Positions 12,312 through 41,030 of a stretch of 64,000 nt of DNA are shown here, in pieces. Position numbers and translations under genes: made by a program. The stretch spans positions 23,622,001 through 23,686,000 of the forward strand of contig OX597822.1 of the NCBI GenBank assembly GCA_951406725.2, written 5' to 3'. Within the stretch, counting starts at the first letter, position 1; every line of letters begins with the position of its first letter. This stretch comes from Octopus vulgaris (taxonomy: Eukaryota). The notes beneath the pieces were generated by a model. The model was not told the DNA's origin and made no database searches. It saw nothing but the letters and a program-made list of their open reading frames with translations.

Positions 12312-15300
12312 ATGAATAACAAAAGACAAAAACTTGACGTTCGTTCATTTCAAGATTCCTGGATAACTGAGTATGGATTTGTACAAATGATCGTGATGTG
12401 TGTGCATTCTGCTGTGAATCTGTCGTATGTCGTACATCAAGTGTACAGAGACATTATCAAACTAGACACCAGACTATATTAAAAACTCTGATGAGAAAAG
12501 AGAAGCCATAAAAAGGGTTATTTCTAGTTACAAAATAAAAAGCACTTCTGTTTTTGTTCAAATGCTTGGAACCAAAAATAAAGCCAACGAATGTAGATAC
12601 ACAAAGTAGTTTCTGAATGTATAGCTGAGAAAGGTAAACCTTTTACGGATGGAGAATTTATCAAAAAAGCTTTTCTGAGGAACGCTAAAAGTTTGTTTAG
12701 TGATTTACCAAACACCGAAACAATACTGTCCCGAATTCAAGAAATACCAACTTCTGCAAGATCAATTGAGAAACGGATAACTGATGTAGCCGCAGACAAC
12801 AATAAAACAAAAAATTGGATTACAAAAAGCTGCTGCATTCAGAGTCGCTATCGATTTAAGAACTGACGTGAATGACATGGCGCGCCTAGTAATTGTTGCA
12901 TGATACTGTGGCCATGATTGTATTTATGAAGAATTATGTTGATTGATTCCTCTTACCAATACAACTATAGGACAGGACATTCTGATTGCATTTATAAATT
13001 ATTTCGAAAATCAAACCATTAATATAAGTAAAATATATTGTATTACTACTGATGATGCACGCGCAATGTTTGGAAAGGAAAAAGAATTTGTTAAGCTTCT
13101 TGAAAATCATATTGGACGCAATGTAATAAGTTTTAATTGAATTATACATCAGGAAAATTTAGCTGCAAAAATTTCGTCACAAAGCTTGAGTTCTGTCATG
13201 GAGACTGTTAAAATAGCTAACTTCATAGATTCTAGCTCTTCACTGCCTCACTGACAATTTAAGACCCTTCTGCAAGAATTGGACAGCGAATATGCAGACC
13301 TCCCTCTATACAGTAATGTCCGTTAGCTTAGTCGGGGTAACGTTTTGAACAGATTTGTACCATACTTAGAAGAAATCAAAATATCTTTTGAAGAGAAATA
13401 TTTCCCAGAATTGAACAATGAAGACTGGTTATATAAATTGATGTTTCTAACTGACATAAGGAAACACTTGAATGATTTAAATTTGCATTTACAAAGGAGA
13501 GATCAAAAAGTACTTGTTCTTTTTGAATACTGGACAGGAATTTTGTTAAAATTAGATATTTTTTGGCGTGATGAAAGATGGGGTCAAGATACTGAAGGCC
13601 ACAAGAACTAACAAACTCAACTACTGGGGATATGGGATTGAACTCACTATCCAGGTGACAGTAGAGGATTTGAATAGGAATGCGGAGGAGATAGTACTAC
13701 CAGACGACTCGAGATTAAGAACGACGGTAGAGGGCAGGTCGCTTGTATATTGTAAATGTGGAGAGAAGGGCTACATGAAGGCATGGTGCACCCAGAAAAA
13801 GCAACAAGCAGAGCAGGTGGAGAGACAAGAGAGCGTGGACCAGGCAGAACAGGTCGAGGCAAAGGAAACAGAGGATGAATTTACTGTGGTAAAAAAAAAA
13901 GAAGGAGGAGCGGTTGGATAGGTTCTCTGCCAGAGAAACAGAAAAAGAAGAGAGAAGATATGAGAAAAGAAACTGTGAAGGAGGTCAGCAGAAAGGAAGA
14001 CAAAAAGATGACAGAGAACGAAAGTAAAAAGGAAGTGGAGTTACACGTAAAGTTACCAGTTGTTCAGGTGGAAAAGGATTCGGAAATTCAGCTGGCCGAA
14101 GAGGAGATGGAGAGACTATTTAGAGTGGAGGAGGAAAAGAGAGAACAAAGAATTCAAAATAAAGGAAAGAAAATACAAGGAGGAAATGGAGTATGGTATT
14201 ACGTGACCTACCCAACCCAAAGAATGTAGAAACAGAGAAGATAGTCAAGTTTAATCAAATAGTAAGAGTGAAAGTACCATCATACATATACGCAGAGGAT
14301 ATGAAGGCGATAGTGATGGGAAAAGAAAATTACAAGAAACTGGAATAAATGTGTGGGGATAGTATTGACCCACCAGGAGTGAGGGTGGAATTCAAAGAAT
14401 CGCCACCAGTAGTGGATTTAGTAGAAATTGAACCACTAATGAAATATTACTAAAAAGTAAATAAGTATGTTAAATTGACAGGAAAAAAAGAAAAGAAAAA
14501 AAGGAAAAAAGAAAGAGTAAAGTGTTTTGTTATAACTAAAAAATATTGAAAAATAGAGGAACAATTTTAGAGAATGTATATAACGGTTCAAATAATTGTA
14601 ATGGCTGACGATACTTAATTGTTTTGTAAATACATGATAAAAACGGACAGTTTAAAAAGATTAATGGTAATGCATGTGATGAGGGGCGCATGCAGCCATT
14701 CATAACCCCATTGTTATATAATCATCTCATTCATATTCGTTTTATGTATTGTCCCCTCTGTTGTGTCCTGTCTGTCTTTGTTTGTCCCCCTCTATTTCGG
14801 GCCCTTGTGGCTAATAAAAAAATCGACACTTAGCAATACTTACAAATACTTTGAAAATGTAAAAGCTTATTCAAATCGATTTAATGTTAATAAAAATGAA
14901 CTTCAAAAATACATTGCAACGTTGAAAGAAGAATTTTCCCAGCGAGGTAAAGATTTCGAAACTTACGCTCCAATATTATCTTTTCTCATCAAAGCCGACT
15001 TGATTGATTTGAAAATGAACCCATTTGATTTATCACTTTTTGAGTGGATGCACGTCGATAGTCTTGAAATGGAAATGATTGAATTAACAACTTCAGAATT
15101 GAGGAAAACAAAATTTGTGGAATTACGAAAAACTCTTGAAAGAAGCTGCTTGGAGAAGTCTGTTGCCATCTTCAGTTGCTGGATGTCGTTGCCTGAAAGA
15201 TTCAGTTCTTTGAAGAAAGTCTCATATGCTCTGCTTTCAGCCTTTGGTTCAGCATATACATGCGAACAGATTTTTTCGCATATGAAATCTGTTTTGAGTT

Positions 15301-15419
15301 CACAAAGAAGTTGTCTGACAATTCAATATTCGGAAGCTTCTGTGAAGCTAAAAGTCATAAATTATGCACCTGATATTGAGAAATTAAGCAAAAAATGTAC
15401 AGGGACAAGGTTCCATTAA
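12312..15419 (+). pseudogene. hAT transposase (GTF2IRD2/ZBED8-like family), frameshifted and interrupted at 13568-14823
   Basis: N-terminal CxxC...RHYQTRH zinc finger, GKPFTDGEFIKK, SNVR*LSRG, WLYKLMFLTDI, C-terminal dimerisation motif FGSAYTCEQIFSHMK. Confidence 0.85.
13568..14823 (+). mobile_element. 5'-truncated ORF1-only Tx1/L1-like retroelement inside the hAT transposase
   Basis: VEGRSLVYCKCGEKGYMKAWC (degenerate CX2CX4HX4C knuckle) followed by an E/K-rich region; no RT; ends in a SINE-A-like tail at 14762-14823. Confidence 0.7.
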
Positions 15420-16234
15420 TTTATACAAATTTAATGTAATTGCTGTTTATAACTTCTTTATAATTTTGTTCTGTTGTTTATAATCTGAAATTTTTTAAAA
15501 ATTAATTTTTTTAATAAAATTATATTTGTTTCCATGCAATTTGAATTATTAGAGGATTAATAAAATAGATTTCTGTTACTGCGAGTTTCAACAGCATAAA
15601 CTCTAATAATAAAAGCAGTAATATGAAGTTGGCACGCGCAATGATTTTGATAGATTTTGATAGATTTGGCATTCCATTATAAAAAGGTTGCCGACGTGAC
15701 CAACCTATTTATAGAGGCATATAGCACCATATTATCCCGTGTGTCTTTTCTTTTCACAAAGCTGTAAGGTACGATTTAGTTGTTATTTTTAACGCAGAGT
15801 GCAGAGTGTCGCTCGTTGTTTCACGGCTCTTTTTGTTTTTGCTTTTGTTCTTTATGTTTCTTTCCTGTTGTTGTTGCTATTACCGCTGCTGTTGATTGCG
15901 ATTGTTGCTAGCATAAGCTGAACGACATGTAACACGGTCGCTTCGCAACTTATTTGCAACGAAACGAGATATTTCTGTCGATCCATATTACTATGTTAGA
16001 CTCGTGACCTGACACTCAAGCAGTACAGTAATACATACATACATACATACATACATACATACATACATACATACATACATACATGCATACATACATACAT
16101 ACATGCATGCATGCATACATACATACATACATACATACATACATACATACATACACGTATGAAACTTATGCAGGTTTATATGTGTACATGTTTGTATGCA
16201 TGCATGTATATATATGTATGTACGTAGGTGTGTA

Positions 16235-16814
16235 CGAGGTCTGATCAATAAGTATACGGACTGTTGCCATAGAAACAAAGCTAAAGCACACAGAGTGAAG
16301 CCGCTTAGCAAAGAATAACCGTGAACTCTGTTGTGCATGCACACTACGTTTTGACGTTCTACCTCACTGCCACTGTTTACAGCAGTGCTTGGAAGGAAGG
16401 TGTGTAGCGTGTTATCGTTGCATTGACCATGACAGAGAAAGCTGTCGTGGCAATACCTGCTTAGAGGGCTAAACAAAGTTGCAGAAAGTGTATGGAGAGG
16501 CGTGTATGAGCTGCACACAAATATACGAGTGGTTTAGACATTTCCACGATAACCGAAAAAGTGTCGATTTTGGCGAACGTTCTGAGAGACCCGCAACCAC
16601 CAGAACTGAGAAAAACATCGCAGATGTGCGTGCAGCTGTGAGGGTAAATCATCGAACCACTATAACTGAGATATCAGAGGATGTACAGATTAGTCACGGT
16701 TCAGTTCAGTCCATTATCACCGAAGATTTGGATATGGGACGCGTGTCCGATAAGTTTCTGCGAAAACTGTCACGAACGATGAAAACTTTTTGGAAAGTTT
16801 GCGTAGGCCTCTGA
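16235..16814 (+). mobile_element. Mariner transposon 5' fragment
   Basis: TA plus TIR CGAGGTCTGATCAATAAGTA; transposase HTH fragment follows. Confidence 0.8.
16479..16814 (+). pseudogene. Mariner transposase N-terminal HTH fragment
   Basis: VYGEACMSCTQIYEWFRHF...RSERPAT...ISHGSVQSIITEDL. Confidence 0.85.
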
Positions 16815-17051
16815 GCAGTGGGGATGACTCTCTCAAATCACCGGGTGTTTAACCACCCAAAAGTCATGAACAGGCGAAAAAGCAAATGGTTTTTACACTA
16901 TCTTGATATATACTCATGGACAGGCAATTCAGTTCACCTTCAATTTGGTTCAGGTATGTGATGTTGTTAAGCCACAAAAATGGCAAAATATCGACGTCCA
17001 TCGTTCCTATATGGGATTTGGAGTGAGTTGTGTCGCAGGACATATACAGTG

Positions 17052-17128
<77 letters not shown>

Positions 17129-17247
17129 GTATATATATATATATTTATATATATAGAGATACATTTATATATATATATATATATAATATATTATATATAT
17201 ATATATATATATTATATATTTATATTATATATATACATATTTATATT

Positions 17248-17303
<56 letters not shown>

Positions 17304-17341
17304 CATACATACATACATATATATATATATTTTATATATGA

Positions 17342-17532
17342 TTCGCCATGATAGATCGCTAGCCACTACACTTTCTTTATTTTCTCTCCTTGTTTCTTTC
17401 TGTGTTCCTTTCTGTGGAAGAGCGTAGGCTCGAAACGTTAAAGACATTTTTCAGTTCCCGAGCGTTATAATAATACATGCTTGTTGCCTACACCACCTGC
17501 TGTCTTCATTTTCTGTTTTTTTGTGTGAATTC

Positions 17533-17537
<5 letters not shown>
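17342..17537 (+). mobile_element. Solo PLE pseudo-LTR with an A6U hammerhead variant
   Basis: CTTT-CTGTGGA-A-GAGC GTAG GCTC-GAAA-C-GTT-AAAG at 17408-17443; homologous to the 3' end of the PLE at 42388-42600. Confidence 0.75.
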
Positions 17538-17594
<57 letters not shown>

Positions 17595-17601
<7 letters not shown>

Positions 17602-18172
17602 ACAATATAATAAATAAATAAAATATATGCATATATACGTACATATTTGTACATACATACATCTACATGTATATATACAAGCATATATATATATATATGA
17701 GTACAGGACACCACAAATAAACGTAGAACGCAACGAGAAACGAAAACATAAAATCAAACAAGGAAACGGACTTTTTTTAGCAACGAAAAAACAGAGTACA
17801 GGACAAACAATACAAGGGAAATTCCCTTCATCAGCTGCCTCTGGTTCGACTCAATGCGTGTTTCGAAGGTAAGGGCAGAACACGGCCAAGCCGAAGTAGT
17901 CCTTCCTGCAAAAGGAATTAAATAAAATTCTTTTGCAGAGGGGTAAAACAAGTGACTTCCTTTTGCAGGAAGGATTGCTTCGGCCTGGCCGTGTTCTGCC
18001 CTTACCTTCGAAACACGCATTGAGTCGAACCAGGGGCAGCTGATGAAGGGGAATTTTCCTTGTATTGTTTGTCCTGTACTCTGTTTTTTCGTTGTTAAAA
18101 AAAGTCCGTTTCCTTGTTTGATTTTATGTTTTCGTTTCTCGTTGCGTTCTACGTTTATTTGTGGTGTCCTAC

Positions 18173-18249
<77 letters not shown>

Positions 18250-18331
18250 TTGTATATATACATGTAGATGTAAGTATGTACATATATGTAAGTAGATATG
18301 CATATATTTTATTTATTATATTGTTATTATA
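17595..18331. repeat. Near-perfect fold-back (inverted repeat), PLE-like
   Basis: Arms 17595-17917 and 17957-18331, 39-bp spacer. Confidence 0.9.
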
Positions 18332-18518
18332 TGACCGAACGCACGATTCGTTTCTCTTCAAGTAAATTTATATATATATATATAGGGAGAGAGAGAGAGA
18401 GAGACAGAGAGAGAGAAAGAGAGAGAGAGAGAGTAAAATGAATGGTTCATACCTGGTAGCTTACTGGTAAAGCACGATCACTTTCACAGTGTTCAGTGTG
18501 TATATGATAAATGAAAGA

Positions 18519-18751
18519 TAGAAGATGGAATATACGAAAATTTATTATTAATCACGACAATTATTTCGACACATCTAACATCAATCCCTCACGGGTGGGA
18601 GACTTAACAACTGGTTCAGGAGCATCTGACGGTGCAGATGTGTCTCATTGGGTAATAAATAGAAACAACCGGTGGGGGATCGATGCTAGATATGTCGAAA
18701 TAATTGTCGTGATTAATAAATTCTCGTATATTCGATCTTCTGTTTATCATT
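18519..18751. repeat. Fold-back inverted repeat, arms about 80 bp
   Basis: AATCACGACAATTATTTCGACA / TGTCGAAATAATTGTCGTGATT. Confidence 0.8.
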
Positions 18752-18753
18752 TA

Positions 18754-18807
<54 letters not shown>

Positions 18808-19067
18808 ACACACACACACACATATTTTCCATTGCGCATCATCTTGGGCAAGTATCTTCTACTATAACCACAACCCGACTAATGCATTGTGGGTGAGTTT
18901 GGTAGACGGAAACCGTGTGGTATCTCGTTGTATGTGTGTATATGCGTTTGTGTGTTTGTGTGTGTGGTCATAGATAGATAGAGAAATAGATAGACAGAGA
19001 GACAGGTTGACAGACATATAGATAGACATATAGACAGATTGAGAGTTAGATAAATAGACAGACAGAC

Positions 19068-19110
<43 letters not shown>

Positions 19111-19134
19111 ATAGACATACATACATTCAAAATG

Positions 19135-19273
<139 letters not shown>

Positions 19274-19689
19274 CATATTGATGATAGAAGATATTTAGAC
19301 ATATAGAATGATAGATAGATTGGCAGACAGACAGGAAAACAGAAGGGCAAGAGAAGAAAGTTTATCTCTTTGCTTTCTTTTTTAAGCCACCAAAATAAAG
19401 AGAAAAAGCGTCACCTTATATATAGAAGAGGTATTTAGAAGTTATGCTCTGTGGTTCCTTTACAGACGTTGAAAGGATGGCTTCTCGTATTTCTCGACAG
19501 CAAAGCACGAACGTCTACCATCTTTAAAGTACATCGCAACAGGCATAGAATTGCGTTTCGAAAACTTTACCGTCCTCTCACCTTATCTCGCTTTCGCTTT
19601 CTCCATCTACCTCTGTCTATCAGCCTACTGCTTCCACTCGGTTTCTCCCCCTCTCTCTCTTTCTCTCACTCTCTGCGCTCTCTCTGTGA

Positions 19690-19813
<124 letters not shown>

Positions 19814-19928
19814 GTCTCTCCCTCCATATCTATCTACCTACGTATCTATCTGTCTGTCTGCCTCGCTATCCATCCTTATTTTTTTACATACACACACATA
19901 TGTATGTATGTGTTTGTATGTGCGTGTG

Positions 19929-19998
<70 letters not shown>

Positions 19999-20013
19999 TG
20001 TATATATATATAT

Positions 20014-20306
20014 AGCTTGGGTTTCAGGGGACCACAGCTCTTCAATATCCTTCCTAAATGCCTGAGAGACCTGCATGGTGTGGATGTGGGTTTCTTTAAA
20101 ACTAAACTCGATCTCTTTTTGTCAGGGGTTCCAGATGAACCTACCTCTCTGCAGGAAACACAGATATGGGCAGCGTCGTCGAACTCCCTTGTTGACCAAG
20201 TGCCACGTATCAGAGCGGGTTTCACATACTACTGTAGCACAATCAACGGTGGTGCCCCAGCATGACCGCAGCTTTCGGGCCGAAACAATTTTAAGGATTT
20301 AAGGAC
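20014..20306 (+). mobile_element. CR1/L2-group LINE 3' end
   Basis: SLGFRGPQLFNILPKCLRDL...FKTKLDLFLSGVPDEP (RT C-terminus); ends GGTGCCCCAGCATGACCGCAG..GAAACAA then (TTTAAGGA)2. Confidence 0.75.
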
Positions 20307-20736
20307 ATATACATTTTTCTTCTACTATTTTCTTTTCTTCTAATTATTCTATTCTACTATTTTCTTCTATTATTCTGTTTCCTTGAAAAATTCCCCTAGG
20401 CGTTACTCCTTACAATTCGTAGTGGCCTAACGGCCCTTTATGCTTGCTTTCGTCGATTGTTTACTCTGTACGTCCACTATGTCGTTGTTTGTTCGTTCGA
20501 AGCTCTAACTCTCCATGGATTTCATATATTTAAAATTTCTGGATGCTGCTATCTTATGAAATTCCCTATATTGTCATTAAAAGCACGAAATAGAGAGTAA
20601 TAAACAGTCCGACAACTGATGAGGCGTTATCTTCTTTTTGTCCTGTGCCTTTCCCTCGTGTGTTTACGTATTTTTCACTCGTTGGTGATGTCCTGTACAC
20701 AATGTGTATTTTTCATTTATATATATATATATATAT

Positions 20737-20912
20737 CACGTGATCACGTGACCGACCAGTCCATCAGATGTAGTTACACATCGCTGGTCACAACGCGTTC
20801 GCATTGTTTTAGCCTTCGAATGACGCCACCCCGCTGGCTAAGCGAGCAGGCCAACAGAAGAAAGAGTGGGAGAAAGAGTGGTGAAAGAGTACAGCAGGGA
20901 TCGTCACCACCC
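20737..20912 (-). mobile_element. SINE-C 3' half
   Basis: Reverse complement of about 31545-31700. Confidence 0.75.
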
Positions 20913-21059
20913 ATATATATATATATATATATAAATACATTTTTCTATCGTATAGGGTTAACAGCCCTCACCGTATATTTTTACTGTTTTGTTCTCATTG
21001 TCCTGTTCTTGTTACCACTTTCACCCAAATTTATTTAATTTGCTTTGCGGGAACGATTG

Positions 21060-21331
21060 TGTCTAAGAAGTCGTGTATTGTCCTTGCCTTCGTAACGCAG
21101 AGTAGATGAAACAGGGACAACTGAAGAATGGTAACATTCTTTATGTTGTATGTCTCATTTCTCTGTTTTATTTCGTTGTTCCAAAAACAGTTCGTTTTCT
21201 ATGTTTTTGTTTTTATGTTTTCGTTTCTCGTTGTGTTCAACGTTGTTTTGATGTCCTGTACCCATATATGCATGTATCTATACAAATATATATAGGTATG
21301 TATATATATGTAAGAATATATGCATATATTC

Positions 21332-21340
<9 letters not shown>
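21060..21340 (+). mobile_element. Diverged relative of the 17595-18331 arm
   Basis: TTTTATGTTTTCGTTTCTCGTTG and GATGTCCTGTAC shared. Confidence 0.6.
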
Positions 21341-21389
<49 letters not shown>

Positions 21390-22504
21390 CACACACATTT
21401 ATGTGAATGATGTGTGAGAATGTATGTATGTTTGCACGTATGTATAAGCTACCGCGTTTGTATATGTAAACATATATCATCCTCTTTATCGTCATTGAAC
21501 GTCCGTGTGTCATGTCGGCATGGATTGGCTGCTTTAACAGGATCCGATGAGTCCAAGGACTGCATTATGCATGTTTCGGCATCTACTTAAACATGGTTTC
21601 TATGTCTAGAAACTCTTCTTAACGCCAATCTACTTTACACACGTACTGGTTGCAGTTTTTGTGTCACCAGAACCACTGAGGTTACCTAAACAAGCCATTC
21701 TCTCTTTCTTATAGTGTAACATTTATTCTTTCAAATTTCTTTTCTTCGTTTTCCATTATTCTCCTTTTTATAACTTCAATTGTCTCTTTATTCTTTCCTC
21801 GTCGCCTTTCGCTCTCTTTTTACTCTTTCTCAAAATTTTCCCCATCTCCATTCTTTCCAATATTCCTCCATTTTTCATTATTCATTCAGCTTGTTTATTT
21901 TTCATCACCTTCGAACTCTAAATCTCTCATTCAATTTCTATCCATTTTCGTTTTTTCTTCTCCTTCTCTCCTTCTCTTCCTTTTCTTTCTCTTACACTTT
22001 CTCCCTCTTCTTTTTCTATACTTTCTTTGGTCTTCATCTCTCCCTCTCTTTCTTTCTCTTTATATTTCCTTCATTCATCTTTCTTTATCCCTTATTGTTA
22101 TCCGTCTTTTCACCCTTCTTACATTGTTTTCTTTTCCTCCCACTCCTTTTTATTTCTGTCTTTCTCGTTTCCATTCTTTCTATCTTCCTTTGCTTCTTCA
22201 TTGAATTCGCTTTTTCGGTGTGTTTTTTCTGCCTGCCAGTCTCGAATTCTAAGACTCCCATCCATTTTCCTATTCTATCTTCTTTCCTCCGTGCGTCCTA
22301 GTTTTATTTTATCATCTTTTCCCCATTTTTCCCCCCATTTTTATTTTTATCTTTATCGTCTGCTTTATTCAATGTTATATGCCAAACTTACACTTGCTAT
22401 AAATAGCAGCCGATACTGAGGTCAGTATATTCTGATGTAAAATAACATACATTTGTTATGTTTACTTAGGTGTCGTTACCTTCCCTTCCTTAAACGCGGA
22501 TGTC

Positions 22505-22538
<34 letters not shown>

Positions 22539-22576
22539 TGTATGTGTGGGTATACACATACGTATGTATACTTTTG

Positions 22577-22615
<39 letters not shown>

Positions 22616-22785
22616 TGTGTGTATGTATGCACACGACTGTACATACATGTATGCAAATACAGGGCCGTATGACTGAATATTTGTCTGAAACACACGCACA
22701 TGCGCACACGCGCACGCACACACACATTTGTATGTATAAATATATATACATATCATTTACAATGTGAACGTATGTGTATATATAC

Positions 22786-22822
<37 letters not shown>

Positions 22823-23303: not shown

Positions 23304-23365
<62 letters not shown>

Positions 23366-23372: not shown

Positions 23373-23708
23373 ATTCTTTTATTCTTTTATTTGTTTCAGT
23401 CATTTGACTGCGGCCATGCTGGAGCCCCGCCTTTAGTCGAGCAAATCGATACCAGAACTTACTCTTTGTATGCCTAGTACTATCGATATCTTTTGCAGAA
23501 CCGCAAAGTTACGGAGACGTAAACACACCAGCATCGGTTGTCAAGCGATGATGAGGGGACAAACACAGATACACAAACATATGCATACAAATATATATAT
23601 ATATATAAATATAGTAGAAGACATTCGTCCAAGGTTCCACGCAGTGGGACTGAACCCGGAACTATGTGGTTGGTAAGCAAGCTACTTACCACACAGCCAC
23701 ACCTGCAC
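23373..23708 (-). mobile_element. SINE-B copy with an intact head
   Basis: Head GGTTGGTAAGCAAGCTACTTACCACACAGCCAC shows the empty target site. Confidence 0.85.
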
Positions 23709-24691: not shown

Positions 24692-26208
24692 ATTTTATAA
24701 GGACTTCCTTCCTTCCTTCCTTCCTTCCTTCCTTCCTTCCTTCCTTCCTTCCTTCATTCATTCATTCATTCCCTCCTTCCTTCCTTCCTTCCTTCCTTCC
24801 TTCCTTCTTCATTCACTTACTTCCCACCACTCTCGAGTGGAAAATCATGGGCCCCGCATTCTCCCTTCTGACTAAAAAGATTTTTCATAAGTACTTTCCT
24901 ATTATCGATAGTCACTTTTTTCTATTTACTTCAAGATTAGTCGACTTACACACTTTCGGAAGATCGATAAAATAAGTACCAGTTGAACACTGGGACCAAG
25001 GTAATCGACTTAACTACTCCTTGGCATGAGTATAAAAGACTGCATCTCTCTTCCAAGCGATGTCCATCCAGCCAGTGTGGCAGAATAGGACTCATCAAAC
25101 CAGTATGATCTCTGGCTCAAATTCACGGTCCCCACATCAGACCGTGGCTGGTGGAGAGAACATGCTGAGGCGTGCGTCCTGCAGTGGATTGAACATAGGC
25201 AATCCAATCCAATTCAATATGAAGGATTAGTAAATAGACCGTTACACTCGTGAGACGGGTGTAATAGTTAATTAGTGGTTTCTCAGAATAGCTCATGGAG
25301 AAGGAAAAGGACAAAAGAACTGGATGTTGTTTTCTTTCTGTGAAAGAATTTTTGTCCAAAAGATTCCATTCTTTTACATTGTTTGTTCTCCCATTCGTTT
25401 AGTAAATAAAAAAGTTGGCTGTCAGTAATAGGAAAATACCTTTTGTTTTTTTTTTAGGGAATCAAAATGGATCTTATATTGACGAAAACGATCTTACTGC
25501 AGTGCGGTAAGAAATCGATATTTCTACAATCAAATGTGGCGCGTTTGAAAATCAGAGGGTAATAACAGTGTAAAACTAAACTAGATCAGGTTGTGACCTA
25601 GTTCTCCATTCCTTGTTGCAGCAATTCAATTCCACCTCACTTCATGTCAAAAGCCAAAAAAAAAAAAAAAATAAATAAAAAAAGGAATGACGGTTTGGCT
25701 AAGACCCAATGCGTCGCAACGTCGCAATGTCTTGCGATGTTTGGAATTTTTGCTTATATCTACAAACATATGTTACTTAAACAGGAGTACCCCCCCACAC
25801 ACACACACACAGACATAGACACACAGACACGCACAGACACACACACACGGACGCACGCATACACACGCTCACACGCACAAGCACACACACACACAAACAT
25901 AAGCGCGCGCACACACACATATACATACATACGTGCACACCCAAATAATTTGACGTATACATAATTTAATATATATTTGTGTATGTATGCTTGTACGTAT
26001 TCGGTCATTAGACTGCGGCCATGCAGACAAAACCAACTTCTTAAAAGGGTTCAGTGCGTCAAATCCACCGCAATACTCATTTGTTAAATCTGATTGTTAT
26101 CTTATGGGTTCTGTTTTGCCGAACCGTTAAGCTAAGGCGACGTAAGTAACCTAAAACCGGTTATAATGAGTTCATAGATACACACACACACGCATACACA
26201 CGCACTAC

Positions 26209-26488
<280 letters not shown>

Positions 26489-30044: not shown

Positions 30045-30048
<4 letters not shown>
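29912..30048. repeat. Perfect 49-bp inverted repeat around a (TA)n spacer
   Basis: ATTGAATTTTTCCCTGTAAGTTAGGAATAATTTTCCCTCAAATTATTAT and its reverse complement. Confidence 0.92.
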
Positions 30049-30093
<45 letters not shown>

Positions 30094-30234
30094 CATCGTG
30101 CTTCTTTCAGTTTCCGTCTACCAAATACACACACAAGGCTTTGGTCGGCTCGAGGATATTGTAGAAGACAGTTGCCCAAGGTGCCGCGCAGTGGGACTGA
30201 AACCGGAACCATGCGGTTGGGAAGTAAGCTTCTT

Positions 30235-31193
30235 TATTTCTTTTAAATTGCCATAAAGTCATTACATAGAAGGGGACAATACAACACATGTGGGGAGATA
30301 TAACAATTAAAATAGAAATACGATGCTATGAATGACACATGAAAATGAACATGAAAAACATTAAAATCAAAATATCAAAATAATGATACATGAATGATAA
30401 CTTGAGAAATGAGAATATGAAAAGAGTCCTGAGTCCTCTTTAGTCTTTGATCTAGTCTTTCGTTTACCGTTTTCCGCATCGCTGAGTGACAACACCCTCT
30501 CCTCCGTGTACATGTAACCATTTTCACCATAATGAGGTCCAGTTTTTTTCCTCTCCATCCTCCGTCCTCCGTTTCTGTGGCTTGGAGGACAGCCACCTCC
30601 TCCTCACTTCCAACGAGGATGGCTGCCGCAACCCCACCCACTTCTATATCTGGCGGAATTCCTTCTACCCTCACCTTGGAAGTCTTTTTTCCAAGGTACG
30701 TGGGTAGAAGTACCACTTCCTCCGTTTTTACAGTTGCACTTGTCAGCCTCTTTGCCTCCTCCGCTGTCCTAAGCTGGACAACCACCGTCCCATATCCACT
30801 TCCTTTCGCTATGTATGCTACTTCCTTCGAAAGCCCCTTCAATGAATTTTCTACTTTTTCCATCTCCATCCGCTCCACCTTCCTACTCTCCACTGTAGGT
30901 AATGGTCTTCTTTTCCATATTTTCCATATTTTCCCTAACCTTTTTCGGGGTTAATAACTTTACGTCACCGGCTAGATCCACCTCTGCAGACTCTTTACTC
31001 TTTCCATTCTCGTTCATTCTATTTACCGCTTTAACGAGCTTCTCCTCTGCTGAGGACAGCTCATACTTGCTAAGGTTCGAATACATTCCTTTCCACCGGT
31101 ACAACACTCACTAACAAACCGCTGCCAAGCAGCACCAAAAGTTTCCGCCCGACTCGTCAAAAATCAACATAGCAAATAGATCGACGCATGCGC
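30235..31193 (-). mobile_element. ORF1-only Tx1/L1-like retroelement with a 16-bp TSD
   Basis: TSD GGGAAGTAAGCTTCTT at 30219-30234 and 31194-31209; tail TATTGTCCCCTTC...TATGGCAATTTAAAAGAAATA. Confidence 0.85.
30520..31090 (-). pseudogene. Tx1/L1-like ORF1 (gag-like) N-terminal half, frameshifted
   Basis: YIAKGSGYGTVVVQL...VLLPTYLGKKTSKVRVEGIPPDI; homologous to 39020-39471. Confidence 0.7.
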
Positions 31194-31229
31194 GGGAAGT
31201 AAGCTTCTTACCACACAACCACCCGTGCG

Positions 31230-31700
<471 letters not shown>

Positions 31701-31758
31701 ATATATATATATATATGTATATATATGTATATATATATGTATATATATATATACGCAC

Positions 31759-31852
<94 letters not shown>

Positions 31853-32101
31853 ATACACAAGGTAAACATATCTATATAACTATGAAATGAGTATAGTTAT
31901 CAGGAACTCTAGAGTCAGAATTAATACGTAACGATAGTTGAACACACATCGTCTATACCAGACAATTCTTTAATTGCTTCAAATTTCCCCAAACAAGGCC
32001 ACAAGTTACTTTGTCGCAGCCTACGGAGGTGAAGGTTGTCAGCCATAAATGCCAGCAATATATATACATACATACATACATACATACATACACACACACA
32101 C

Positions 32102-32134
<33 letters not shown>

Positions 32135-33117
32135 TGTATGTATGTATGTATGTATGTATATATATATACATACATACACATAGATACAGTTGAAAGATGG
32201 TTGTAAAATAATTGTTAAAGAGACGTTAAACATATGACGAGATAGTAATAAAAGAAGTGAAAGATTACTGAACTTATGGCAATAAAATAAAGTAACCGAG
32301 ATGACAATAAATGAGCTAATAAAATGGAAGTAAATAAGATGGCAATAAAAAGACACAAAAAAATGGGATAAAAATATTAAAAGGAAAGAAACCACAAACT
32401 TTACGTAAGCTGTAAGTTAACTGTAAGTTTGAACCAGTGTGCCGTGGAATGTGTGTGTGCCACGTCTCTTACACAGGTACCCGCGATTTTGTGTTTCCTT
32501 TTTCGGGAATCGGGGAGATGCTTAAGGTATTTAAAATCTTTTACTGATTTTAGTGTATTGTACCGGTATAGATGTATTTACTTACTTCCTCAAAGTCTAA
32601 CCGTTGACCTCATCGTGGTGGGAAGGTTAAACGAGTGAGTATCAGAGCTATACCGTCAGGTGCGGGGGTTTTGAGTCCATGGCAGGGTTGCCCAAGGCGG
32701 ACAGGTCTGATCTCGGCGGTGCTAGCGCAGGAACCCGGCTAAGTGGAGGGCAATAGTGAATTCCAGGCAGCATCTGTCCGGCGGCTTCCTGGTGGCGTTG
32801 AATCGCGTCTGTGGGCATTCTGCGGCGGGAAGACGTAACACGAAGATGATTTGCCACAGGTCGTGTATAGTGGCTTATGAATACAGACGGGAACTGTTTT
32901 CGCAGACTTTGATCATCCCTTGAAATCCCTATGAACTCAATATGAACGGGTTTAACCCTTCCCCCAGGTGCCGTTACAAGACAAAGAAGACTTATTTACA
33001 ACAATATACAATGCATGCTCCAGCTTTGATTCAAAGTGATATGAATATTTGTTATCTGTATGGTTAAAATCTTTCTAAAACGCTGATACCGTGCTCTAAC
33101 AATTCTAACGCCTTATT

Positions 33118-33402
33118 CAGCGAACCGTGCGTGGATCAAAACAGAAATGCAAAAAGGCTTTGCTCAGTGATCCGTGGCTCAAAAGTGTTGAAAATAAATG
33201 ATTCAGTGAAACCTGGATAGAAAAAAAAATGCTAAACATCTCTGATCAGTGATCTGTGGATGAAAAAAAATTAAATCTGTGGTCAGTGAACGGTGGATCA
33301 AAAAGTGTTGAAAATCCCAGGTCAGTGAACAATGGATCAAAAAATGCTACAAAAATCTCTTGTCAATGATCTGCGGATCAAATTTGTTTTAAAATCTCAG
33401 TC
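33118..33402. repeat. Degenerate tandem repeat of about 39 bp, about 7 units
   Basis: Recurring TCAGTGA(A/T)C.GTGGATCAAAAA. Confidence 0.8.
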
Positions 33403-33793
33403 CATTGAGAAGATAGCTGGTATATGGTGAATTCGTGTACACTGTTTTTACACTGTTTTTTTAACCACTTTTTAAAACCAATTAAACCATTTTTAACCGT
33501 TTTAAACCATTTTAAACATTAAAAAATTTTTAAACCACCGTTAAACTTTTTTTAACCCCAGTTCCTTTCGTTTACTCACTTTTTCAGCACCTTTCGTTTA
33601 CTCACTTTTTGCTTGAAAACCGCCCACCTCATCATTTTTGATATACACACACGTAATATCAGGCCAGGGTAAAATAGTTCAAGGGTGCTTGTATGATGCG
33701 AGTGACTACTTACCACAGCACCACTCTATTATAAGTGAATACTGTAAACATAAGCGACTTTGTTTATTTGCTTATTCACTTTTCAAAGTCTAT

Positions 33794-33881
<88 letters not shown>

Positions 33882-33959
33882 TTATTATTGCTATTGGTGT
33901 TGTCAATATTGGCATTATTATTGTCGGTGTTGTGATTCTAGCTGACTAGTAGGCACTTT

Positions 33960-34150
33960 ACTATCGTTTGCACGCCGGGCAAATTGCTTACCAAGCATTT
34001 CGTCCGTCTTTACGTTCTGAGTTCAAATTCTGCCGGGGTCGACTTTGCCATTCATTCCCCTCTGGGTCGATAAAATAAACACCAGTTGAGTACTCAGTCA
34101 TTGTAATCGCCTTACTCCCTTCCCGAAATTGCTGGCCTTGTGCCAAAATT
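33960..34150 (+). mobile_element. SINE-A copy
   Basis: GTTCTGAGTTCAAATTC..GTCGACTTTGCC. Confidence 0.75.
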
Positions 34151-34484
34151 ATTATTAGTAGTATTATTATCATTTATGGTTCCCTTTCATAACTTTATTT
34201 CAGCTGCCTTAGTACCGAGGCCAAATGACGCAAGGGCATTTTTGTTTTTGTTATGCATGCTAAAATTACTACCACATTTATTCCATTTTAGATGGAGAGT
34301 GCTTTCCGTACACGGAGATTGGAGTTACCAAGGAGTTGCTTAATATACTTCTCAGCTTAATATACTTCTTTTTCATTCCCAAAGCACCAATTATTACTGG
34401 TATTATCGTAGTACTAAGCCTCCACATTTTTGTGGTTTCAATTTGCCGATCTTTATAGTGAGAAGGCTTTTCGTATTATTATTA

Positions 34485-34575
<91 letters not shown>

Positions 34576-34589
34576 TTATTATTATTATT

Positions 34590-34930
34590 GAGTGAGAGAG
34601 CAGTGCATGCCATCAAAGTGACACTGGAGTAAAATATAAGAAGCCAGTATACCCATCATGACTACCCGTCTGATAAGGGTACACTAGGCACATGCATCAC
34701 AACCATATGTGCATGACATGGTGATCTCATATCAAGATAAACAGCACATGACCTTACAGGTGGGGCCCAGTTAGAATTTTCTTCTGGTCAAGTAATCCAT
34801 CCTGCTCAAAAGGTCCTTGAATAAGGGTTGTTTAAGGATGTTGAACGAAACACCCATGTTTCCAGAGGTGAATAATTCAAACCCCAAAGAATCCCACTCA
34901 ACACATGGCTATGATGCTCCCCAATACTTA
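34590..34930 (-). mobile_element. About 340-bp interspersed element embedded in a (TAT)n tract
   Basis: Complex sequence with sharp ends and long (TAT)n on both sides; strand inferred. Confidence 0.5.
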
Positions 34931-34931
34931 C

Positions 34932-35008
<77 letters not shown>

Positions 35009-35009
35009 C

Positions 35010-35046
<37 letters not shown>

Positions 35047-36505
35047 GTTATTATTATTATCATTATTTTGCAACAAGCAAGAATGTTAGTCCTAAAATCT
35101 CTCTGAGAGATCAAGGCAGTAGTTATACTGACAAGTAATATTCGTAGCCTGTGTGTTCGCTTGAAATATATATATATTGCGTGCAGAAGCGAGCTGCTAT
35201 CAGCTCAAGCAGACGAGGTGACTAGTACTAAGGAGTGGCAAAAATAGCCCGAAGCCACGACTTGTCTATTGGTCCCGTCGCTAAAAGATGGTAGAGGATT
35301 CGCTCCCCTGCTCGAAATTTTATCAGATGCAGCTGTGCACCGTTAACTAACCAACTAGAAGAGTAGTCTTTTTGGGATTAAAAAAATCGCGGTGGAGTCC
35401 GCTCGAACGGACAGCCATGTTAAAGTGGCTCGAATATTACTTATTATTATTACTTATTATTATTATTATTATTATTGGTATTAATATTGCCTTTGTTGCT
35501 GTGATTGTAGCTGGTTAATAAGCAATTTATCGTGATATTATATTTAATACTTTTTAAAGTTAATATTTAAACAGGAGTCAAAGACTAGCTGTTACAACAC
35601 TACATAATTGCCAGAACTTCCATTACGTCTGCTTGCTTCGAGATGAGTCATAAACCGGCAGCTGAACCTTTAAGGCTCCGAACATATGCAACATATAATT
35701 CAAAACTACTACAGGGTTTATATAGCTCGCCTGTGATATGGTAACCTTACGTCCTTTGGGAATGCTTTTCAAACCAGGGTTATTTCAACAGATTTTTCTA
35801 CATATTACACAAGAGTTATGATCATAAAAAATGCATAGATGCATCTATCAACCCTTTGTCCCTAGTGCCCATATAAAATTTTTAGCGACACCTCCCCGCA
35901 TCCCGAGAGCGGCACCGCCCACTTTCAGAAGCACTGGTGTAAACTATAAATTCTTCCCTAGTTTTTAAAAAAAATCTCTCTTCGAAAATAAAAATGAAAT
36001 CAAGAATCCAACTTTCTTCCTTCCTTGTGTTTAAGACCCTTAGACGTTAGCTATTGCCATGATATAAAAACTTGGGTGTACTGAAGCGACCAGTTCGAAT
36101 CCTACGTCTTCTCTGGCAGCATTTCTTGTAGAACTTGATCGTAGAACGTTTCTGTAAGTCGAACTATTTTATTTTTGATTTCCGCTGGAAAAACTGGGTT
36201 GCGATTTATACTCGAGGAAAGGTTGAATATGAAAGTGGAAAAATTGGTTCCAAGATTTAGCATAAAATAAGGGATCCAGCTAATACAGAATACGGTAGGT
36301 TATAAAATGTGTGTGTGTGTGGGGGGGGGATTCCATTACGCTTAGGAGTATAATGGAATTCAAGACCAATGCATGTCACGTTTTCTATTGAAGTCTGGAA
36401 ATATTTTACCTCACTAAAGGCAACGAAAACTAATGTACGCCACAACTTCCTATTTCCTCTTGTACTGAGAACATGGTCGTGGTTGTAATAAACGATTATT
36501 ATAGA

Positions 36506-36831
36506 AGATGAAGAAGAGAGGGGGTAAGAAGAAGAAGAAGGAGGAGGAGGAGGAGGAGGAGGAGTTCATGAAAAAACAGGAAGAGGAGGAGGAGGGAAAA
36601 GGGGATTATGTGAAAGGGAAAATAGAAGAACGAGGAAGAGATGAAGAAGAAGACGACGAAGCAGAAGAAGAAGAAGAAGAAGAAAGTGACGATAGAGGAG
36701 GAAGGGTTCACCAAAAAACAGGAGGAAGGGGCGGAGGAGGAGGAGGAGGAAGAGAGGCATGATGTGAAAGGGAAAAAAAGAAGAACGAGGAAGAGATGAT
36801 GAAAAAATTGAAGAAGAAGAAGAAGAAGAAG

Positions 36832-36862
<31 letters not shown>

Positions 36863-36994
36863 GACGAGGGAGGAGGAAGGGTTCACCAAAAAAAACAGGA
36901 GGAATGGGCGGAGGAGGAAGAGGGGGATAATGTGAAAGGGAAGAAAAAGAAGAACGAGGAAGAGATGAAGAAGAAGAAGAAGAAGAAGAAGAAG

Positions 36995-37025
<31 letters not shown>

Positions 37026-37026
37026 C
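36506..37026. repeat. Purine-rich compound tandem repeat, about 3 units with (GAA)n/(GAG)n
   Basis: Recurring AAAAAACAGGA and ATGTGAAAGGGAA..GAAGAACGAGGAAGAGATGA. Confidence 0.85.
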
Positions 37027-37794
37027 ATAAACCTTCTAAAAATAGAACAGAACTAGGTCACTATGCATTAACCTACATCTACATAGGAAAAAGTCAGTTG
37101 CTTGAAACGGGAGATGAAAGTCCCTCGCCTTTTCTGACTTGTTCCTACAATTGCCGTTATGAATAAAATGTAGTCTCTCGCCGTTCACGCTTTATCAATG
37201 TTGTAGGACTCGCTTTTAGGCAAGGGAGCCTTTTAACAAAACAATCTGCTATTAATCGTAACGGTTCCTTGGTCCTTTTTTATTGTTGTTGTTGGTGTTG
37301 TTGTTGCTGCTGCTGTTGCTGCTGCTCAGTTGGCATAAAAGGGCAAAAGGAAATGAGAAAAAAATGATAATGGATATAGGGTATTGATATATGTTAACTG
37401 CCGAAATAGCAAGTCAGAAATGGTTAATTAATTAAAGGGTTGTCTCGTTGGAACTGATCTAGGGTTAAGCAACACCAACACACACAACAATGATAACATA
37501 CAGTGGAATCGAACGCTCGTATCTCATTGTTGGAAAACGAACTTAACAAATCTATGAGGCATGGCAATGTGGTAAAAAAACGTTCTTCCCTAACTACATG
37601 GTTCTGGGTTCAGTCCCACTACGTGAAACCTTTGGAATTTGTTCTCTACTGTAGTCTCAGGTTGACCAAAGCCTTGTGAGTTGATTTGGTTGACGGAAAC
37701 TGAAAGAAGCCCGCTATATAGCTATCCATGGTCACATTGCTTAAATGCCCGCCAAGTTTAGTGGTGCAACACAATTGGATAGATCAATTTACAT

Positions 37795-38004
37795 GTTGGT
37801 TTCAAGTCTTGGTTCAAGACCAACAAAATCGGGGAAGGGGATAAGTCCATTACACCGACCCCAGTGCTCAGCTGGTACTTATTTTACCGCCCCCAAGAGG
37901 ATCAAAAGCAAAAACGGCTTCAGCAGAATTTGAACTCAGAACATAAAGACAAATGAAATGCTGCTAAGCATATTGTCTGGTGTGCTAACAATTCAGCCAA
38001 CCGC

Positions 38005-38088
<84 letters not shown>

Positions 38089-38301
38089 CCTTTCTAATAA
38101 AGGCAGAAGGCCTGAAATTTTGAGCGAGGGGCTATGTTGATTATACCGACCCCAGTGCTCAGCTGGTATTCATTTTATCGACGTCGAAAGGATGAAAGGC
38201 AAAAACGACCTGCGCAGAATTTGAACTCAGAACGTAAAGACGGGCGAAGTGCCGCCAAGCATTTTACCCAGCTTTACTACCGATTCTGCCAGTTCGCCGC
38301 C
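37795..38301 (-). mobile_element. Two SINE-A copies separated by (AAT)n
   Basis: AATTTGAACTCAGAAC in both. Confidence 0.75.
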
Positions 38302-38554
38302 TTGAGATTTATTTACATATTAAACAGGGAAGTGATATGCACATATTAATTGCTGGCAAGGATACGGTGTCCCGTTTTGCAACAATAATATATAACGAAG
38401 TATATTAAAGGCTTACAAGTCAATATTGTGTCGTATTCTGTGTTAGCAGTGCGATATTCTCACTTTTATGGTTATCTCTATAGATTTCCTATGTGATTGA
38501 TTGAGTGATTGATTGATTAACCAACTGACTAAACAGTTAATCGATTAGTTTATT

Positions 38555-38886
38555 CTTTTATTATTTTACTTGTTTCAGTCATTTGACTGCGGCCATGCTG
38601 GATATTCTTTGTAAGCCTAGTATTTATTCTATCGGTCTGTTTTGCCGAACTGCTAAGTTACTGGGACGTAAATACACCAGCATCGGTTGTCAAGCGATGG
38701 TGGGGGACTCACACAGACACACAAACATACATATATATATATATCCGCCGGGCTTCTTTCAGTTTCCATCTACCAAATCCACTCACAAGGCTTTGGTTGG
38801 CCCAAGTCTATAGTAGGAGACACTTGTCCAAGGTGCCACGCAGTGGGACTGAACTCAGAACCATGTGGTTGGTAAGCAAGCTACTT
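38555..38886 (-). mobile_element. SINE-B, head interrupted at the target site
   Basis: Ends at GGTAAGCAAGCTACTT, then foreign sequence. Confidence 0.85.
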
Positions 38887-40178
38887 TAGTTCATAAAATT
38901 TGCTATGAAGGCATTACAAAGAGAGGACGAACAAGGACAGACAAAGTTTAAAAATTTATGAGGATAAATTTATGATTCAATTTAAAAATTACAAATTACT
39001 ATTTACAAATTACAAAGTGTGTGATCTGAAGGAAAGCGATTTATTCAGTCCTGTTATACAACAGGGCGGCCATCACTTCCCTTATATCAACTTCAGGTGA
39101 CACTTCTGTCACTCTTACTCGAGCACTTCGTCTCCCCATCTAGGTTGGCAGAAGTACCAACTCCTTCGTTTTTAGGGGACTCACTGAGTGCTCTTGGGCT
39201 TTTACTTCTGTCTCAAATCTGGCCTCTACTGTGCCATAAGTACGGCCCCTTACTATATACTTTATGTCTTCCCATATGGAGCCAGATATTTTTCAATTTT
39301 GCACTGCTCAAAGTGCTTAAATTTCTTTGTTGAATGACAGTATGTCCTTCTTTTCAATTTTTCAACACTAGGTGAGGGTGGTATTTTTATATCAACCCCC
39401 ATCCCTTCTTTCATTTTTTCAAAAAAGCCGGAGAGCTTTTCCTTTGATAGTTCGACGTTTTCAGTAGCCACCGCGGTACTGCTGAAAATTTCTTAACAGG
39501 CTCTTCCAGTGAATTTTTCTCTGAAAATATTTCGACCGACATATTCATTCGAAATAAATTTATACACAACTTAATCCCAGAAAACGGGAAACCTATAATT
39601 TTTTACATCTTTTTTCTCTCAACGAGGACAACAGTTCAAATCCCAACCCCCGCTGGGGGCGAGACGTAACAACAAAGTCTACAACGGTCGAAATTAAATT
39701 TTTCACACAATAATAAAAATACGGTATCCCCCAAAAAGGGAAACCTATAATATGTTTTATTTTTTATTTTCCTCACAACGAGGTGCCACAATAAAGCCTA
39801 GAACGGCTAGAATTAAATTTTTCACACAATAATAAACTGATTATCCCCCAAAACGGGAAACCTATAATATTTTTTTCCTCTTAATGACGATAACAGTTCA
39901 AATCCCACCCCCGCTGGGAGGCTGGGAGGGAGCCACGACAATAAAGCCTACAACGGCTTTAACCAGTTCAATATTTCAACAATGCACAACTGCAAAATTG
40001 ACTTTACACAAAGAATTACTTTCTCCCATCACCAGGATGGGAAATTTTCAAGGTTTAACAGTTCAACAATGTTTAACAGTTCGAAAATGTTCAACAATAA
40101 ACAGTCAACAGAAAAATTATCCAACGTTCAGCAAAACGTTTGACTCACCGCCAAAAACACACGTCTAAACACGAGACA
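38887..40178 (-). mobile_element. ORF1-only Tx1/L1-like retroelement with a 16-bp TSD
   Basis: TSD GGTAAGCAAGCTACTT 38871-38886 / GGTAAGCACGCTACTT 40179-40194; 5' UTR has internal tandem duplications at 39570-39960; SINE-A-like tail. Confidence 0.8.
39020..39471 (-). pseudogene. Tx1/L1-like ORF1 N-terminal half with stops and a frameshift
   Basis: Manual translation YIVRGRTYGTVEARF...LVLLPT*MGRRSARVRVTEVSPEV. Confidence 0.7.
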
Positions 40179-40194
40179 GGTAAGCACGCTACTT

Positions 40195-41030
40195 TATTTC
40201 ATTTTATTTGCCATAAAGGCAGTATACAGAGTAGCTGTGGGCTAGACAAGACATTAGTGAGGCGAATGATAATAATACAAGATGATAAAGATGGGAGAAA
40301 ACAGAAAGCGCCCGCCGACCCTCTTCTTATTCTCTTTTGCGACCCCCTGCTTCTTCTCTCTTGTGGCCTGCAGGTATTCCTGCAACCATCAATCGGAGCC
40401 AAAATAAAGTAATCTGTATTCCTCCTTTGGGAAGGATCTTGACCTGTGGAAAAAAATCTTTTCTTTCCAGTACCAGTGCAGTCACCTGCGAAGGCCACTC
40501 TGGGCTGTCAATAAAAATCGGGTCCATCAGAACCCGACAATCAAGATTATTCTCCACATACTCCTCAATCGCCCCTCCCCTGCGATAGAGGAATACAAAT
40601 TCCTCATCACTTTCATTGAGAGGGAACTCAAATACCTCGCTCGGTGGCACATATCCCACCGAGAAGGTTTCCTTCTTCTTCCCGTCCGGTGGCACACATC
40701 CCACCGTTTTTCTTTTTCTTCTTCTTTCTTTTCTCCTTTGCGACGGGAAGGTGGAGTTCCTCCGACATGTCCGGGGGTCCCTCCTCCCCTCCCGTCACCT
40801 CAGGGTCCACCGGTGGGCAACCATTGTTGCCACCTTCTTTCTCTTAGTACCTTTTCTCAAGGAGGTTACCTCCTCCTCGACTTTCTCCCTCTCTCCCTCC
40901 AATGAAGGAGCAGGAGGCTCCGTTGGGGGAACAGTGGGTTTACAGTCATCAATCAACTGTTCCAGGTCCTTCGCCTGGGTCCAGTAACAGTTCTTCTTCA
41001 TGTGCCCTGATTCCAGCACAGGTAACACTT
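40195..41030 (-). mobile_element. 5'-truncated ORF1-only retroelement stacked at the same site
   Basis: Frameshifted knuckle CYLCLESGHMKKNC near 40985-41027, ORF1 C-terminal region, then the tail CTTTATGGCAAATAAAATGAAATA abutting the TSD. Confidence 0.75.

Follow-up and report, generated by a model that had tools for sequence, protein, structure and literature searches.

Organisation of the locus

A stretch of 64,000 nucleotides from Octopus vulgaris (positions 23,622,001 to 23,686,000 of the forward strand of contig OX597822.1, assembly GCA_951406725.2), hereafter referred to as the window, consists of eukaryotic DNA that is rich in microsatellites and short interspersed nuclear elements (SINEs). 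It contains four retroelement copies, E1 to E4, which carry sequence of, or resembling, the first open reading frame (ORF1) of a long interspersed nuclear element (LINE) and end in a 3′ tail that is also found on one of the SINE families, SINE-A. Three of them are inserted in a second SINE family, SINE-B. An earlier note on this DNA, made from the sequence alone, had described the four as gag-like elements of an old family that brings along an RNA-binding protein of its own and borrows reverse transcriptase (RT) in trans. The positions that it gave for the elements are right (Table 1). It recorded neither their shared insertion site, with target-site duplications (TSDs) of 16 bp, nor a fifth tail-bearing insertion, E5.

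The copies differ in layout. E2 and E3 both start upstream of an ATG, and this ATG matches the starts of the relatives P0004 and P0026. E2 has a 5′ untranslated region (UTR) of 107 nt, an ATG at 31086 and the N-terminal half of ORF1 up to about 30528, inside the second RNA recognition motif (RRM2), followed by a 3′ region of about 290 nt and the tail. E3 has a 5′ UTR of 636 nt that includes tandem units of 117-152 nt, an ATG at 39542, the N-terminal half of ORF1 up to about 39020, again inside RRM2, a short 3′ region and the tail. ORF1 homology is thus lost in both copies within the second RRM, at points about 17 codons apart, and gives way to a T-rich 3′ region. The ORF1 remnant of E1, which is interrupted by stops and frameshifts, comprises the end of RRM2, a degenerate zinc knuckle, a charged linker and a complete C-terminal domain. 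In E4, the 5′ edge is formed by a frameshifted knuckle, followed by a charged linker, a frame of 155 codons (40794-40330), a 3′ region of 135 nt and the tail; upstream of the element lies a microsatellite, with neither a 5′ TSD nor a SINE head.

Table 1. Positions of the elements, their flanks and related insertions in the window.
Feature	Position	Strand	Remarks
E1, 5′-truncated ORF2-less LINE copy	13568..14823	+	Profile and relative matches; ORF1 remnant 13568-14453, then 370-nt 3′ region with terminal shared tail
E2, 5′-complete copy of 959 bp	30235..31193	-	
E2 5′ TSD	31194..31209	-	16/16 identical to 30219-30234
E2 3′ TSD (30219-30234) and remainder of host SINE-B	30085..30234	-	
E3, 5′-complete copy of 1292 bp	38887..40178	-	
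E3 5′ TSD, also E4 3′ junction	40179..40194	-	15/16 identical to 38871-38886
E3 3′ TSD (38871-38886) and remainder of host SINE-B with internal microsatellite and 3′ module	38560..38886	-	
E4, tandem insertion upstream of E3 at the same site	40195..41030	-	
E5, short tail-bearing insertion outside the four elements	~57760..58047 (start approximate)	+	Tail profile E 2.5e-5
SINE-A, example copy with the shared 3′ tail	26205..26371	+	The window has 8 tail-bearing copies in all
Decayed hAT-type DNA transposon, E1 inside	12306..15700 (ends approximate)	+	Weak Pfam matches below cut-off

The ORF1 protein family

With the open frame of E2 as query, 168 protein clusters, 150 of them listed, were retrieved at E≤0.001 among 1.84 billion representatives. 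A set of 151 relatives served in the further analyses. The relatives that bear names are UniRef entries of Octopus bimaculoides. The long ones share a layout of an N-terminal segment, a conserved core of about 190 aa, one CX2CX4HX4C knuckle, a charged low-complexity linker and a C-terminal domain of about 70 aa; the knuckle is intact in 17 of the 151, many of which are fragments. The database rows of alignment A1, without the window row, were turned into a core profile, against which 3,059 pieces of the window in six frames were searched. The only pieces with E<0.01 belonged to E2 (9e-47), E1 (2e-23) and E3 (3e-19, 2e-9 and 0.002). Moreover, the C-terminal part of E1 is 68-73% identical to the C-termini of the O. 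bimaculoides UniRef entries P0002 and P0003. The homology that had been claimed for all four ORF1 pieces therefore stands for three of them; E4 is considered below. The motifs that had been listed as common to the elements turned out to be a composite, since YGTV and VLLPT occur in E2 and E3 alone and the C-terminal block in E1 and, doubtfully, in E4. Likewise, no copy has the intact knuckle that had been attributed to them: it is degenerate in E1 (13751-13789), frameshifted in E4 (41027-40987) and missing from E2 and E3.

An AlphaFold model of family member P0005, which is confident over the core and has a mean predicted local distance difference test (pLDDT) score of 78.7, matched tandem-RRM proteins in Foldseek (best E 8e-6). 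It aligned with the La RRM at a Z of 9.2 and a root-mean-square deviation of 2.5 over 81 residues, many ferredoxin-like folds reaching a similar Z. Atlas matches were to eukaryotic CCHC clusters (0.92) and ZCCHC3-type RNA-binding domains (0.90). Type I LINE ORF1 proteins consist of one or more RRMs and a CCHC knuckle (PMC5203782). Judged from the predicted fold, the ORF1 of this family is such a Type I protein, with tandem RRM-like domains and one knuckle, rather than a capsid gag. The RRM-like fold and zinc knuckle that the earlier note had anticipated were thus recovered, and its term 'gag-like' is loose. The gag of a long terminal repeat retrotransposon was considered and rejected: there are no terminal repeats, the fold is RRM-like, and sequence matches in the PDB are confined to the knuckle and its neighbouring residues. 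The C-terminal domain, which is conserved in P0002, P0135, P0032, P0021, P0092 and P0095 and at 14214-14450 (+) of the window, has no Pfam match, and its model is of low confidence (block pLDDT 48-78).

The ORF1 proteins of E2 and E3 are 37% identical, and over 84 codons the identity at positions 1, 2 and 3 is 0.55, 0.69 and 0.33. As far as codon positions can tell, selection on ORF1 somewhere in the ancestry is real, as had been suggested, but the pattern does not discriminate, because two-ORF parents are equally compatible with it. E1, E2 and E3 never formed one group (0% of 200 bootstrap trees), which argues that their insertions were independent; the tree comprised 60 of the 151 relatives, chosen by profile span, and one more added by hand, and the exact placement of E1, which fills 35% of the columns, is unsure. 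P0002 was examined as a bridge between E2 and E1, its N-terminal half grouping with E2 and its C-terminal half matching E1, and was discarded as a possibly chimeric gene model. In the gene models P0001, P0041, P0123 and P0002, this ORF1 is fused with a C2H2 zinc-finger, an LDL-receptor-A or an astacin domain, or two subfamilies are combined. These models are probably annotation chimeras, with exonisation as the other possibility.

A 3′ tail shared with SINE-A

The earlier observation that the tails of the elements resemble the end of SINE-A, which we take to be a Deu-type SINE, was upheld. The observed alignment scores were reached by 0, 6, 0 and 1 of 1000 shuffles for E1, E2, E3 and E4, respectively, and by 0-12 of 1000 in the 10 pairwise alignments among the 70-nt ends of the four elements and SINE-A. 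A profile of the four tails found 12 places in the window, namely the four elements, 7 SINE-A copies and E5. Upstream of its tail, E5 has a T-rich stretch and some 150 nt of GC-rich sequence, in which no ORF1 or Pfam match was found; a TSD was not found either. E5 may be the 5′-truncated end of a normal two-ORF partner. It is followed by (CAT)/(CGT)/(ACT) microsatellites.

Four of the eight tail-bearing SINE-A copies (at 6466, 6704 and 54737 on the plus strand and at 45249 on the minus strand) adjoin another SINE-A-type head at varying positions, forming tandem arrays. Self-targeting of SINE-A is a possible origin of these arrays.

A common insertion site in SINE-B

E2, E3 and E4 all end at one nucleotide of the tRNA-like head of SINE-B, which is presumably identical with OR1/OR2 ('OR-type'). 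This nucleotide lies right after the A-box-like TGTGTGGT, and the three elements have the orientation of the SINE. E2 is flanked by AAGAAGCTTACTTCCC at both ends and E3 by AAGTAGC(G/T)TGCTTACC, each TSD pair having the variant bases of its own host. Upstream of the 5′ TSD of E2 lie the first ~22 nt of the host head (to 31231). The 3′ junction of E4 is the 5′ TSD of E3, on which E4 is stacked in tandem. Accordingly, three of the four copies sit at one nucleotide, and two of the four have a 16-bp TSD. SINE-B has 14 matches in the window, 10 of which span the site (judged from the alignment printout); two of these 10 are occupied, one of them twice. By a crude calculation, uniform insertion would yield such a shared site with a chance of about 2e-8, or 9e-7 if ±3 nt are allowed. 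Since insertion separates the A-box-like from the B-box-like segment, it probably silences the SINE.

With regard to a possible CORE-type tRNA SINE, the CCTTGGG core named in PMC5786205 is present in the SINE-B consensus. The A and B boxes were seen by eye, and one intact head that was submitted to ARAGORN and Rfam returned 0 tRNAs and 0 matches, respectively. In SINE-B, which is bipartite, the head with its core is separated by an internal (TA)n/(TG)n microsatellite from a 3′ module (38560-38886 -, 47787-48139 +, 49201-49832 -). The tail of this module is unlike that of SINE-A, which implies a different LINE partner. The target site is near-palindromic (GGTAAG...CTTACC; 23680-23700, 38868-38889 and 30217-30236, minus strand) and forms a hairpin in the SINE RNA; the nicks are asymmetric.

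Absence of ORF2 and origin of the copies

ORF2 is absent and the 3′ tail kept in all four copies. As the earlier note had stated, there is no sign of an endonuclease or RT: the element pieces that were scanned have no such Pfam match, and ORF1 is separated from the 3′ end by just 135-370 nt. Pfam scans of 168 window pieces, most of them from 445 complex frames, revealed no RT or apurinic endonuclease, just hAT, mariner and GIY-YIG remnants. When the 3′ regions of the elements were compared all-against-all in translation for remnants of ORF2, one marginal, low-complexity pair of six emerged (3/200 shuffles), and none of the four regions was significantly similar to E5 at the protein level. Among the relatives, 37 long ones have no endonuclease or RT Pfam domain and 151 no ORF2-like motif, which carries little weight as they are mostly single-ORF predictions. 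Long fused ORF1-ORF2 proteins (1092-3115 aa) numbered 0 among 7,999 candidates, which is weak evidence.

E2 and E3 start upstream of ORF1, end in the tail, have clean TSDs and lack ORF2, and the tail is common to a SINE that borrows RT. The view that RT was borrowed in trans, already taken in the earlier note, is therefore well supported. Ordinary 5′-truncated LINE copies retain the end of ORF2 beside the tail. Here, all four copies are devoid of it, and in E1 the complete C-terminus of ORF1 is followed by just 370 nt to the end of the element, so that loss of ORF2 before insertion is favoured. A direct passage from the ORF1 C-terminus into a short UTR and tail had been reported for two copies and is firm for E1 only. 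On balance, we lean towards regarding the elements as dead derivatives, devoid of ORF2, of a Tx1/L1-type LINE family of octopus. They would have been made from RNA that had no ORF2 already at insertion and that stemmed from long-lived masters. Most likely, at least some lineages, of the E1 type, were HAL1-like masters in which ORF1 had been retained and ORF2 lost; E2 and E3 would be further-deleted forms reduced to 5′ and 3′ parts.

This view departs from that of an old family with an RNA-binding protein of its own. Every copy is broken, and both E2 and E3 are without the knuckle and the C-terminal half, so that neither could provide a complete RNA-binding protein; these half ORF1s and their differing breakpoints argue against a single self-supplying family. 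An intact ORF1 without ORF2, which the earlier note had proposed to look for, was found in none of the four copies: E2 and E3 combine an intact 5′ end with half of ORF1, and E1 and E4 have no 5′ end. The missing complete ORF1 may reflect decay of these copies rather than of their masters.

Established target-primed reverse transcription suggests how the observed ORF1 kinship of three copies, absence of ORF2, shared tail and shared site could fit together. RNA polymerase II (Pol II) would produce a transcript from the element's own 5′ end, and an ORF2 protein encoded by an autonomous relative would recognise the tail of this transcript. In the SINE-B head, this protein would nick the bottom strand directly 3′ of the A-box-like segment (...CTT/ACCAC) and prime reverse transcription there, and a cut in the top strand 16 nt away would give rise to the TSD. 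As the target site would be rebuilt 5′ of the insertion, later copies could stack in tandem, as E4 did on E3. SINE-A may be moved, via the shared tail, by this ORF2 or by a sister of it. Partners of autonomous size exist: 13 L1-Tx1 families have been active recently in O. vulgaris, with 421 insertions, 2.29 Mb in total and ~5.4 kb per insertion (PMC13282606 Table 1).

Several observations weigh against this interpretation. No ORF2 with this tail was identified, so that the Tx1 assignment is drawn from ORF1 type and targeting. Among the relatives of E2 and E3 that extend as far as the break, the closest run on beyond it with normal ORF1 sequence into the knuckle (14 best rows of 57 and 58, respectively). 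The four ORF1-to-3′ junctions all differ, and none has a second copy in the window. No conserved tail hairpin was found, as the E3 tail alone beat its shuffles in folding (3/200) and the other four tails did not. E1 lies outside the SINE-B site, and a TSD looked for at its ends was not found. Finally, E4 scored E=0.28 against the core profile, had no match at E<1e-3 in tblastn searches with the 151 relatives, and its C-terminal block TALVLERKDF is at chance level (340/1000 shuffles against P0002 and, at best, 77/1000 among 8 relatives). E4 agrees with the other elements in knuckle, tail and target, but its protein homology is not significant.

The most serious alternative, which we consider unlikely, is that the copies are one-off products of two-ORF Tx1-like LINEs, generated from spliced RNA or by template jumps during reverse transcription, and were dead ends that founded no families. 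In human L1, spliced and template-jump insertions are a minority, whereas all four copies would be of this kind here; moreover, E1 retains ORF1 exactly to its stop. On the other hand, the breakpoints all differ and two of them cut ORF1 itself, which would be intolerable for a self-supplying family. It is also known that spliced L1 RNAs retrotranspose, mostly as dead ends (PMC5860796), and that L1-Tx1 elements of ~5.4 kb are active in O. vulgaris (PMC13282606).

It is improbable that the copies were normal two-ORF insertions from which ORF2 was removed by large deletions afterwards, the case that the earlier note had named as its refutation. Their age and damage would suit this explanation, as would the lost 5′ flank of E4 and the frameshifts and missing TSD of E1. 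However, it requires four independent multi-kilobase deletions, each sparing the tail, and the 168 window pieces contained no matching ORF2 debris. In addition, the TSD of E2 is perfect, and its host is ~84-87% identical to other SINE-B copies, which leaves limited time. A single insertion into SINE-B, multiplied later through copying of the SINE or through duplication, would explain why all three hosts stem from one abundant family, but this is largely refuted and very improbable, because E2 and E3 have saturated third codon positions whereas their hosts are 84% identical, because each TSD pair follows its own host, and because E1, E2 and E3 do not group.

A bolder version of descent from ORF2-less masters can be envisaged, in which several old ORF2-less Tx1 lineages, independent or ancestral, with a selected ORF1, were served by a site-specific ORF2 aiming at the RNA polymerase III (Pol III) promoter of a hyper-abundant SINE, while a second SINE captured the tail. 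We regard this version as possible but doubtful.

Comparison with known elements

Non-autonomous LINEs with an ORF1 are an established class that includes HeT-A, HAL1 and Ag-Sponge (PMC5786205; PMC5753468), and about 40% of Drosophila telomeric families are ORF1-only and non-autonomous (bioRxiv 10.1101/2025.06.09.658640). Repeated independent loss of ORF2 has been documented for LINEs of this type (same three sources). As in these elements, 5′ end, ORF1 sequence and 3′ tail are kept in the octopus copies, ORF2 is absent, and RT would be provided in trans. HAL1, HeT-A and Ag-Sponge belong to the L1 (mammal), Jockey and CR1 clades, respectively, and are multi-copy with an intact ORF1. In contrast, the octopus elements have a Type I ORF1 (RRM-RRM-CCHC), include no intact copy and two without half of ORF1, and are known from one 64-kb window.

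Sequence-specific insertion with TSDs is common in the Tx1 clade, albeit not universal. Target-specific members include Tx1L in Tx1D, Tx1-Mar together with SINEU-3 in Mariner-N4_AMi, Keno in U2 and Dewa in tRNA-Leu spacers (PMC4494074; PMC3706591). The octopus elements resemble these in the fixed site within another repeat, the tandem insertions that sandwich a TSD, and the trans-mobilised passengers with the same target; the TSD of 16 bp is as in SINEU-3 (PMC4494074). They differ from the systems described in these texts in that the tRNA-like head of a SINE is hit and that the passengers carry ORF1 sequence. Internally deleted, TSD-flanked LINE insertions are also known as SpIREs (spliced L1 insertions), but these have lost 5′ UTR or 5′ UTR/ORF1 sequence (PMC5860796), whereas the octopus elements are without ORF2.

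The L1-Tx1 elements of O. vulgaris, with 80 families and 56.3 Mb (PMC13282606), are the probable parent class, and protein matches point to the same genus. The available part of that source gives L1-Tx1 counts alone and describes neither ORF1-only forms nor a target site or a SINE partner. No ORF1-only or SINE-targeting Tx1 element of octopus was reported in the literature searched, and the available parts of PMC9115989, PMC4758252 and PMC3747384 contain nothing on these elements; Repbase, Dfam and the O. vulgaris Zenodo library may already hold the families.

Other features of the window

The hAT remnant around E1 was recognised by a Spin-doc zinc finger (12371-12508; Pfam E 6e-4) and a hAT dimerisation domain within 14709-15416 (E 0.002). 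A frame of 206 codons at 43336-43953 (-), with a weak GIY-YIG match (E 0.004), is probably a Penelope-like remnant. Weak Pfam HTH_48 and DUF4817 matches mark mariner-type helix-turn-helix remnants at 16473-16811 (+) and 3550-3717 (+), and an imperfect inverted repeat of ~170 bp with 70% identity (57028-57199) is possibly a small remnant resembling a miniature inverted-repeat transposable element. In an Rfam search of the whole window, the 150 rows listed of 219 were all below the gathering score, and nearly all were miRNA models, many on microsatellites.

Implications

What is new here is a twist on known element types, namely enzyme-less copies, three of them at one base of another repeat; the kind of element itself is not new. 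LINEs with ORF1 alone are known from few clades, and a diversified Tx1 case would be an independent test of why ORF1 is retained. An endonuclease of a LINE with a single 16-bp cutting site in a very common SINE would represent a new target class; it would also name the likely mobiliser of a major octopus SINE and add a candidate site-specific integrase. If the bolder version is true, the elements would form part of a four-way network of parasites. One SINE would serve as a landing pad that is disabled with each landing and the other as a competitor, and the elements would be, within the literature searched, the first HAL1-like Tx1-clade system and a SINE-targeting LINE. Should the copies prove to be one-off deletions, no more than the target site and the pairing of LINE and SINE would remain, and would be useful for the curation of cephalopod repeat libraries.

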